From contig CM000151.3 in the NCBI GenBank assembly GCA_000004695.1, forward strand, positions 4,032,001 through 4,096,000: DNA of 64,000 bases, read 5' to 3'. Within the stretch, counting starts at the first letter, position 1; each line of letters opens with the position of its first letter. Positions 39,868-41,042 of the stretch are shown in pieces. Source of the stretch: Dictyostelium discoideum. Lineage: Eukaryota. The position numbers were made by a program, and so were the translations under genes. The notes beneath the pieces are model-generated. The model was given only the letters and a program-made list of their open reading frames with translations, was not told the origin of the DNA and did no database searches.

Positions 39868-40028
39868 ACAATCTGATATCCAAGATATGTAATAAAAAAA
39901 ACTAAAAAATAAAATAAAAAGTGTAATTTTTTAAAACAAAACATAATTGATGAATTTTATTTTTTTTTATATTTTTTATTTTTATTTTTATTTTTTTTTT
40001 TTTTTTACATATCTTGGATATCAGATTG
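39868..40028. repeat. Inverted repeat with about 27-bp arms and a roughly 110-bp AT-rich spacer, overlapping the 3' end of the LAMTOR3 CDS
   Basis: The left arm ACAATCTGATATCCAAGATATGTAA (39868-39892) is the exact reverse complement of the right arm TTACATATCTTGGATATCAGATTG (40005-40028), with 21 contiguous bp exact. Confidence 0.85.
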
Positions 40029-41042
40029 GATAGAGTTTGAAAGACTTGTTAAACTACGAATTAAATCATCTTGTGAACCTAAAATTAAACCAACATTTGA
40101 TTCTGTGTCTGTGATAATTGATAAAATAACATTTGATACATTAATATGAACTATGATTCTGTCTTCAAAAAAACTAACAATACTTTTATTATTTCCTGCA
40201 TGTAATTTACTGGCCTGAAATTAAAAAAAAAAAAAAAAAAAAAAAAAGATTTCCCATAGGAATTAGTTTTAATGAATAAAAAAAAAAAAAAAACCAAAAT
40301 TCCAATCGATTCGGGTTGTTTAAAGGAAATGGAAAAAAAAAAAAAATCCAATCGATTCGGGTTGTTTAAAGGAAATGGAAAAAAAAAAAAAAATACAATC
40401 GATTCGGGTTGTACATAGGAGATTACCATCCTCCTCCCTTTCTTTTTAGTACCCCCCCCCCCCCCCCCCCCCCTATAAAATGAATATATCTAAACCCTGT
40501 ATTATAAAGAAATAAAACTTACTTGATCGGTTGCAGAAGAGAATGTTGAAATGAGTGAATTATCTATAACATTATCAGCACTTGAACTTTTATCAATAAT
40601 CTTTCCTAAAACAAAACCATCTCTATCTGAAAGGATGAGTGATGTATCTACAATACTTTTACTGTTTATTTTTATTTAACAATTTAATTATTATCATCAT
40701 TATTTTGATTATTATTATTATTATTATTATTATTATTATTATTATTATTATTATTATTATTATTATTATTATTATTATTATTATTATTATTATTATTATT
40801 ATTATTATTATTATTATTATTATTATTATTATTATTATTATTATTATTATTATTATTATTATTATTATTATTGTTTTTATTATTATTGTTTTTTTTTTTT
40901 TTTTTAAAAAAAAAAAAAGGAGTGTTATTAATGTGTTTCATCATAAAAACAATAAATAATAAAAAAAGTCCGAATCAAACTAATAAACATACTCTAAAAT
41001 GGATACTTTGATATATTCTAAAAATTCGTCAACCTTTTCCAT
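40005..41042 (-). CDS. LAMTOR3 / MP1 (MAPK scaffold protein 1, Ragulator subunit), about 126 aa; 3 exons; absent from the ORF track
   Basis: Exon 1 (40992-41042) reads MEKVDEFLEYIKVSILD. Exon 2 (40533-40661) reads KSIVDTSLILSDRDGFVLGKIIDKSSSADNVIDNSLISTFSSATDQ. Exon 3 (40008-40204) reads ASKLHAGNNKSIVSFFEDRIIVHINVSNVILSIITDTESNVGLILGSQDDLIRSLTSLSNSIQSDIQDM, with the stop at 40005-40007. It aligns along its whole length with human LAMTOR3: MADDLKRFLYKKLPSVEGLHAIVVSDRDGVPVIKVAND..FLSTFALATDQGSKLGLSKNKSIICYYNTYQVVQFNRLPLVVSFIASSSANTGLIVSLEKEL. The donors are GTATGT and GTAAGT and the acceptors are AAACAG and TTTCAG, with all phases consistent. Confidence 0.75.
40291..40412. repeat. Tandem repeat of 2.4 copies with a unit CAATCGATTCGGGTTGTTTAAAGGAAATGGAAAAAAAAAAAAAT (46-58 bp) inside LAMTOR3 intron 2
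   Basis: The unit occurs at 40291-40336 and 40337-40394, with a partial copy at 40395-40412. It is relatively GC-rich for this genome. Confidence 0.85.
40453..40473. repeat. Homopolymeric C21 run on the plus strand (G21 on the minus, transcribed strand) inside LAMTOR3 intron 2
   Basis: A direct read of accccccccccccccccccccccta. G/C homopolymers of this length are exceptional in a genome of about 22% GC. Confidence 0.9.
40709..40872. repeat. (ATT)~54 trinucleotide array inside LAMTOR3 intron 1
   Basis: A direct read. Translating it gives the spurious poly-Asn/poly-Ile ORFs 40639-40959 and 40684-40944. Confidence 0.9.

Follow-up and report, generated by a model that had tools for sequence, protein, structure and literature searches.

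What accounts for the long, repeat-packed introns of a short three-exon gene in Dictyostelium discoideum? The gene lies on the minus strand of the 64,000-nt stretch of DNA analysed here, which we call the window. A first-pass annotation of the sequence had taken it for an ortholog of LAMTOR3 (MP1) that ORF calling had missed. It had read the repeats in the introns, among them a C/G homopolymer, either as an insertion of foreign or mobile DNA or as a structure affecting splicing. Here, we set the locus beside its orthologs in other isolates and in related species. We conclude with high confidence that this is an already annotated LAMTOR3 gene whose introns became long through the expansion, in place, of hypermutable repeats.

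Results

Three exons encode a LAMTOR3 homolog

Joining the three exons at 40005-41042 (minus strand; Table 1) gives a coding sequence of 399 nt that encodes 132 aa without an internal stop. Both introns have GT..AG boundaries, and splicing restores a single open frame. The protein matched the Pfam family PF08923 (MAPKK1_Int) with E=4.8e-40 and 136.5 bits (cut-off 25), residues 2-123 aligning on profile positions 1-117 of 119. It also matched solved LAMTOR3/MP1 chains (1VET_A, E=4.5e-12; 5Y39_C, E=1.1e-11), with residues 24-116 covered. Finally, the product is identical to GenBank EAL70309.1/XP_643998.1, encoded by DDB_G0274833 in D. discoideum AX4; its UniRef name is "Ragulator complex protein LAMTOR3 homolog". 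These results bear out the proposed three-exon LAMTOR3/MP1 gene, and the full-length alignment that had been claimed for it is confirmed as a near-full-length match. The locus is a single, ordinary housekeeping gene of D. discoideum that encodes the Ragulator subunit LAMTOR3/MP1, and public databases already include both the gene model and the name.

The gene had not, then, been missed in the sense first suggested. It is absent from a prokaryote-style ORF list because it is spliced, as would be expected, and the identical product was already in GenBank. In the literature searched, we found no paper mentioning DDB_G0274833 and no dedicated study of Dictyostelium LAMTOR3. Ragulator and TORC1 components are recognised in the Dictyostelium literature, which includes a putative Ragulator scheme; in the papers returned, the experimental data concern LAMTOR1, not LAMTOR3.

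Table 1. Features of the LAMTOR3 locus in window coordinates
Feature	Position	Strand	Details
Exon 1, LAMTOR3 homolog	40993..41042	(-)	50 nt; ATG 41042-41040; phase 2 end; same exon in 9 orthologous loci
Intron 1	40662..40992	(-)	331 nt; GTATGT...ACAG; 7.6% GC
(ATT)n/(AAT)n microsatellite, intron 1	40687..40887		TRF period 3, 67 copies, 95% matches
Exon 2	40523..40661	(-)	139 nt; SDRDG and ATDQ motifs common to human LAMTOR3
Intron 2	40215..40522	(-)	308 nt; GTAAGT...TCAG; 29.9% GC
35-nt insertion, AX4-like lineage only	40439..40473	(-)	Sense-strand G22, then TACTAAAAAGAAA
46-47-nt minisatellite, intron 2	40286..40412		TRF period 46, 2.7 copies, 92% matches
ATTCATTAAAACTAATTCC, best-conserved intron 2 block	40259..40277	(-)	Invariant columns in alignment A1; only block kept across all species
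Exon 3	40005..40214	(-)	210 nt including stop TAA 40007-40005
Exact 24-nt inverted copy of the CDS end (40005-40028, stop included)	39869..39892		112 nt downstream of the stop

The exon structure is shared by all orthologous loci

For comparison, we used nine orthologous loci (L001-L009), obtained from exact-protein look-ups, which represent isolates of D. discoideum and four related species. L001 and L002 are assemblies encoding the identical LAMTOR3 protein, L008 is D. discoideum, L005 is D. cf. discoideum, L004 and L006 are D. citrinum, L007 is D. dimigraforme and L003 is D. firmibasis. L009 (GCA_054883475.1) was reached via a neighbouring gene and is 99.0% identical to the window over 10 kb. 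The exon lengths and intron positions were the same in all nine. Their exons differ from those of the window at 1-24 of the 399 nt, mostly at synonymous sites; with respect to D. firmibasis, 17 codon changes are synonymous and 6 are non-synonymous. As judged from these alignments, the conservation of the exons is evidence for the spliced reading frame that does not depend on annotation, and the intron positions are conserved across the genus.

Two of these loci call for comment. We down-weighted L008 for its C89 end and its error-like, divergent 3' exon. The suspect features of this locus, a 16-kb contig (GCA_054859355.1), fall at 38-135 and 1060-1183. Some 170 nt upstream of the start codon of LAMTOR3, the contig terminates in a run of C89+G8; the 3' exon and its flank look error-laden, with A-runs carrying scattered G and C, and the product has 153 aa. 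We regard it as probably a contig that is uncollapsed or of low quality, not a true paralog. The window and L009 differ by 26 mismatches, 4 of which fall inside intron 2 (40215-40522 versus 2433-2734 of L009). Where an intron 2 mismatch allows comparison with other isolates, L009 has the ancestral base (for example, GATTGTA versus GATTGGA). These differences are either real AX4 changes or reference errors at repeats.

Intron 1 length tracks a variable microsatellite

Within the intron 1 array, a pure (AAT)55 run (equivalent to (ATT)55) occupies 40708-40872. Intron 1 measures 156-452 nt among the orthologs, and its length tracks a pure (AAT)n run of 2-88 units; L009 also has (AAT)55. The earlier description of a repeat-filled intron was right in substance and slightly off in its figures: it had given 330 nt and about 54 units, where we count 331 nt and 55.

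The mean D. discoideum intron is 146 nt long, and the genome, 11% of which is simple repeats, contains 1,436 such tracts >100 bp (PMC3188802). The LAMTOR3 introns are 2.1-2.3 times this published mean. They are longer than average, as had been claimed, by a smaller factor than the "three times normal" first put forward. The 64-kb window itself contains nine (ATT/AAT) arrays of at least 10 units and 65 A/T runs of length at least 20. The intron 1 array is unremarkable both in the window and in the genome.

Another pure array, (ATT/AAT)52, lies at 34320-34475, about 6 kb from the LAMTOR3 gene.

The intron 2 repeat unit has the same position in other isolates

Introns of D. discoideum usually have about 12% GC. 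In other species, intron 2 of this gene has 15-24%, and measured against the usual value its core is somewhat unusual in GC even there. In the window it reaches 29.9%, while the window as a whole has 22.6%. This difference speaks for the proposal that foreign or mobile DNA, of transposon, bacterial or viral origin, entered intron 2 and brought both the tandem unit and the C/G homopolymer.

The tandem repeat is real and GC-richer, as the first-pass annotation had noted, in an intron of 308 nt rather than 328 nt and with a TRF period of 46. Its sense-strand unit reads CAACCCGAATCGATTG, a T-run and CCATTTCCTTTAAA. Its core, the 16-mer CAATCGATTCGGGTTG, is found three times (at 40303-40318, 40349-40364 and 40396-40411), compared with 0.01 occurrences expected from shuffles. 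L001 has one copy of the unit, L002 and L008 have two each, and the window and L009 have three. In L001, L002 and L008, the unit takes the form CAACCCGATTG, T-run, CCATTTCCTTTA; it lies at the same position in intron 2, and its flanks are homologous. Alignment A1 and the raw sequences place the G-rich patch, TCTCCTAT, CAACCCGATTGTA, the T-run and CCATTTCCTTTA at the same position in other isolates. Both the homology of the intron across isolates and the variation in copy number are thus direct observations. Intron 2 measures 181-302 nt in the nine orthologous loci and 181-308 nt once the window is added. Subtracting two extra units (~93 nt) and the 35-nt G-tract insertion from the intron of the window leaves ~180 nt, near the shortest ortholog.

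A foreign origin of the unit fits poorly with its presence, flanks included, at the same intron position in isolates that have only one or two copies. Moreover, the search for other copies of the unit that had been proposed earlier returned no further copy in the 64-kb window or in the ~70 kb of related loci that we fetched. Exact scans of bacterial and archaeal genomes and of viral contigs with a 30-nt unit gave zero matches, as did a degenerate pattern covering the ancestral and derived units in metagenome contigs. Terminal repeats, a target-site duplication and coding capacity were not evident in intron 2. The marks of a transposable element or foreign insertion, namely an empty site in relatives and other copies or a donor, were not found in the window, the loci, or the prokaryotic, viral and metagenome scans. 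On these sequence comparisons, the reading as a foreign insertion is largely refuted for the repeat unit, and the moderately GC-richer core of intron 2 is ancestral intron sequence, not an import.

The copies in the window also share a derived change. Relative to the ancestral CAACCCGATTG, all three cores contain five additional nucleotides, AATCG, which are absent from both copies in L002 and in L008. This insert is the reverse complement of the adjoining CGATT and makes the palindrome AATCGATT (a ClaI site). Its occurrence in all three copies suggests either concerted evolution or duplication after the insertion. The best-conserved block of the intron, ATTCATTAAAACTAATTCC, is probably the branch-point region, to judge by a sequence resembling CTAAT and a distance of ~45-63 nt to the 3' splice site downstream.

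A G tract is confined to the AX4-like lineage

The sense-strand G22 of the 35-nt insertion appears on the plus strand as C22 at 40452-40473, the only G/C run of at least 8 nt in the 64 kb. The homopolymer had been correctly reported, and correctly assigned as a G run to the pre-mRNA strand, with 21 residues instead of 22. At the site of the insertion, other isolates have GGGATGGAGGGATGG or GGGATGG, or less; L009 carries the insertion with G20. The strain comparison that had been suggested for the supposed insertion therefore separates its two parts: the 35-nt G-tract piece is private to the AX4-like lineage, whereas the repeat unit is present in other isolates. That restriction is observed directly, and the assemblies indicate that the G tract is real and length-unstable, its exact length (G20 or G22) being uncertain.

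Homopolymers and tandem repeats are error-prone in both sequencing and assembly, and the L008 contig, with its C89 end and error-laden look, is a case in point. One might suppose, then, that the reference is in error here, and that sequencing or assembly produced both the homopolymer and the copy number of the repeat. However, the independent assembly L009 contains (AAT)55, three repeat units, G20 and the 24-nt inverted duplicate described below. This refutes an artefact as far as the presence of the features is concerned, and we give the supposition next to no chance.

How the tract arose is less readily accounted for, as going from GGG to G20-22 would be a large step for simple slippage. We searched the 64-kb window for a second copy or an insertion donor of TACTAAAAAGAAAGGGAGGAGGATGG, allowing up to 4 substitutions, and found none. 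That the AX4-like lineage, and not the other isolates, carries an insertion (G20-22 plus 13 nt) of untraceable origin is a further point in favour of foreign DNA; yet the untraceable piece is just 35 nt long, and 22 of these are one base. Taking intron 2 as a whole, we regard the acquisition of foreign or mobile DNA as highly improbable.

The tract itself is already catalogued. Saad et al. 2019 (PMC6511855) list in their Table S1a the entry chr2:4072452-4072473, which equals window positions 40452-40473 plus 4,032,000 (63 x 64,000). By this single match, the window most likely corresponds to AX4 chr2:4,032,001-4,096,000, which would put intron 1 at chr2:4,072,662-4,072,992 and intron 2 at chr2:4,072,215-4,072,522. 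Only four pure G/C tracts of 19-22 nt stand in the published AX4 list, the other three at chr1:354933, chr2:738919 and chr5:4800459. The paper assigns no gene to the C22 entry, which is outside the 14 sequences characterised there, and it does not mention DDB_G0274833.

Could the tract regulate the gene that carries it? G4Hunter gives the sense-strand G22 a score of 3.52 (-3.52 on the plus strand), the only match of at least 2.0 in the 64 kb. With regard to sequence propensity, the first-pass annotation was right to call it a strong G-quadruplex (G4) candidate. It is a sense-strand feature located 49 nt past the 5' splice site of intron 2. It is also atypical: only 62 of 18,192 AX4 introns contain a motif this strong, and the intronic enrichment of G4 motifs in AX4 is on the non-coding strand (PMC6511855). 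Such a tract might form an RNA G4 in the pre-mRNA, or a non-template DNA G4/R-loop, and so modulate the splicing or transcription of LAMTOR3.

We consider this very unlikely. Other D. discoideum isolates and four related species, whose protein is the same or nearly identical, lack the tract, and its length differs (G22 versus G20) between two 99%-identical genomes, as expected of an unconstrained homopolymer. Neither this tract nor the third repeat copy occurs in other isolates with an identical protein, so nothing points to a conserved function. In addition, the authors of the AX4 survey, in view of the enrichment on the non-coding strand, hold a role of RNA G4s in Dictyostelium splicing to be 'extremely unlikely' in general (PMC6511855). 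We attach very little credence to the more specific idea that G20-22, as an RNA G4 or a G4/R-loop, lowers LAMTOR3 splicing or transcription in AX4-like strains compared with isolates lacking the tract. If it were true, the tract would be a natural cis-regulatory polymorphism in the TORC1 nutrient-sensing pathway.

We also looked for a hidden RNA gene. An Rfam scan of 37500-44000 returned one chance-level match, outside the gene, and the 64-kb window contains no tRNA. Inspection by eye for C/D boxes of snoRNAs and for DUSE, the upstream element of Dictyostelium ncRNAs, gave no convincing match.

A small inverted duplication lies downstream of the gene

The generic search for inverted repeats around the gene was dominated by A/T runs; the 24-nt inverted copy of the end of the coding sequence was verified with an exact-match script. 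It is present in L009 and absent from L001-L008, that is, found only in the AX4-like lineage. Of the copy, 21 nt are an insertion and 3 nt are microhomology that was already there, which resembles the outcome of a template-switch mutation. If transcribed, it is predicted to give an RNA hairpin of 24 bp (z = -10.6).

The downstream neighbour of LAMTOR3, at 36268-37914 on the minus strand, is a single-exon ORF of 548 aa that has an RWP-RK domain at its N-terminus (E=2.5e-24) and also contains long stretches of polyQ and polyN. In other isolates and species its product has 501-551 aa, which indicates that coding repeats here are length-polymorphic too.

Discussion

We conclude that the hypermutable tracts in both introns, the (AAT)n microsatellite of intron 1 and the 46-47-nt minisatellite of intron 2, expanded where they stand. 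Several A/T homopolymers, together with the G20-22 homopolymer of the AX4-like lineage, contribute further to intron length. Head-to-tail copies vary in number at the same locus among close relatives, from 2 to 88 for (AAT)n and as 1, 2 or 3 for the 46-nt unit, as in any VNTR. We infer that the microsatellite and the homopolymers likely grew by replication slippage, and the minisatellite by slippage or unequal exchange. The resulting length polymorphisms are, on our assumption, most likely neutral and would be tolerated by the spliceosome.

The gene, its exon structure, its name and the C22 tract were already known, and repeat-inflated introns are typical of this genome. The new point is a modest one: repeat copy numbers, the G tract and the small inverted duplication differ between closely related isolates. 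These differences could be used as strain markers. In addition, isolates with and without the G tract form a natural pair in which the effect of a sense-strand intronic G-tract on Dictyostelium splicing can be studied.

How does the locus compare with known systems? The protein resembles human and mouse LAMTOR3 (MP1, MAPKSP1), which partners LAMTOR2/p14 in Ragulator (PDB 1VET, 5Y39, 6EHP). Its length is similar (132 aa in Dictyostelium versus 124 aa), and the motifs SDRDG, ATDQxSKL and NKSI are conserved, whereas the overall sequence similarity is modest (PDB E ~1e-11 over residues 24-116). The introns resemble the non-coding simple-repeat polymorphism described for D. discoideum, with AT-rich trinucleotide arrays >100 bp, long A/T homopolymers and copy numbers that differ between isolates (PMC3188802). 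Two features depart from ordinary D. discoideum repeats, namely the minisatellite unit with its relatively GC-rich core and the G/C homopolymer of 20-22 nt, which is rare. Finally, compared with the G4-prone motifs catalogued in AX4 (PMC6511855), the LAMTOR3 tract lies on the sense strand, against the reported strand bias.
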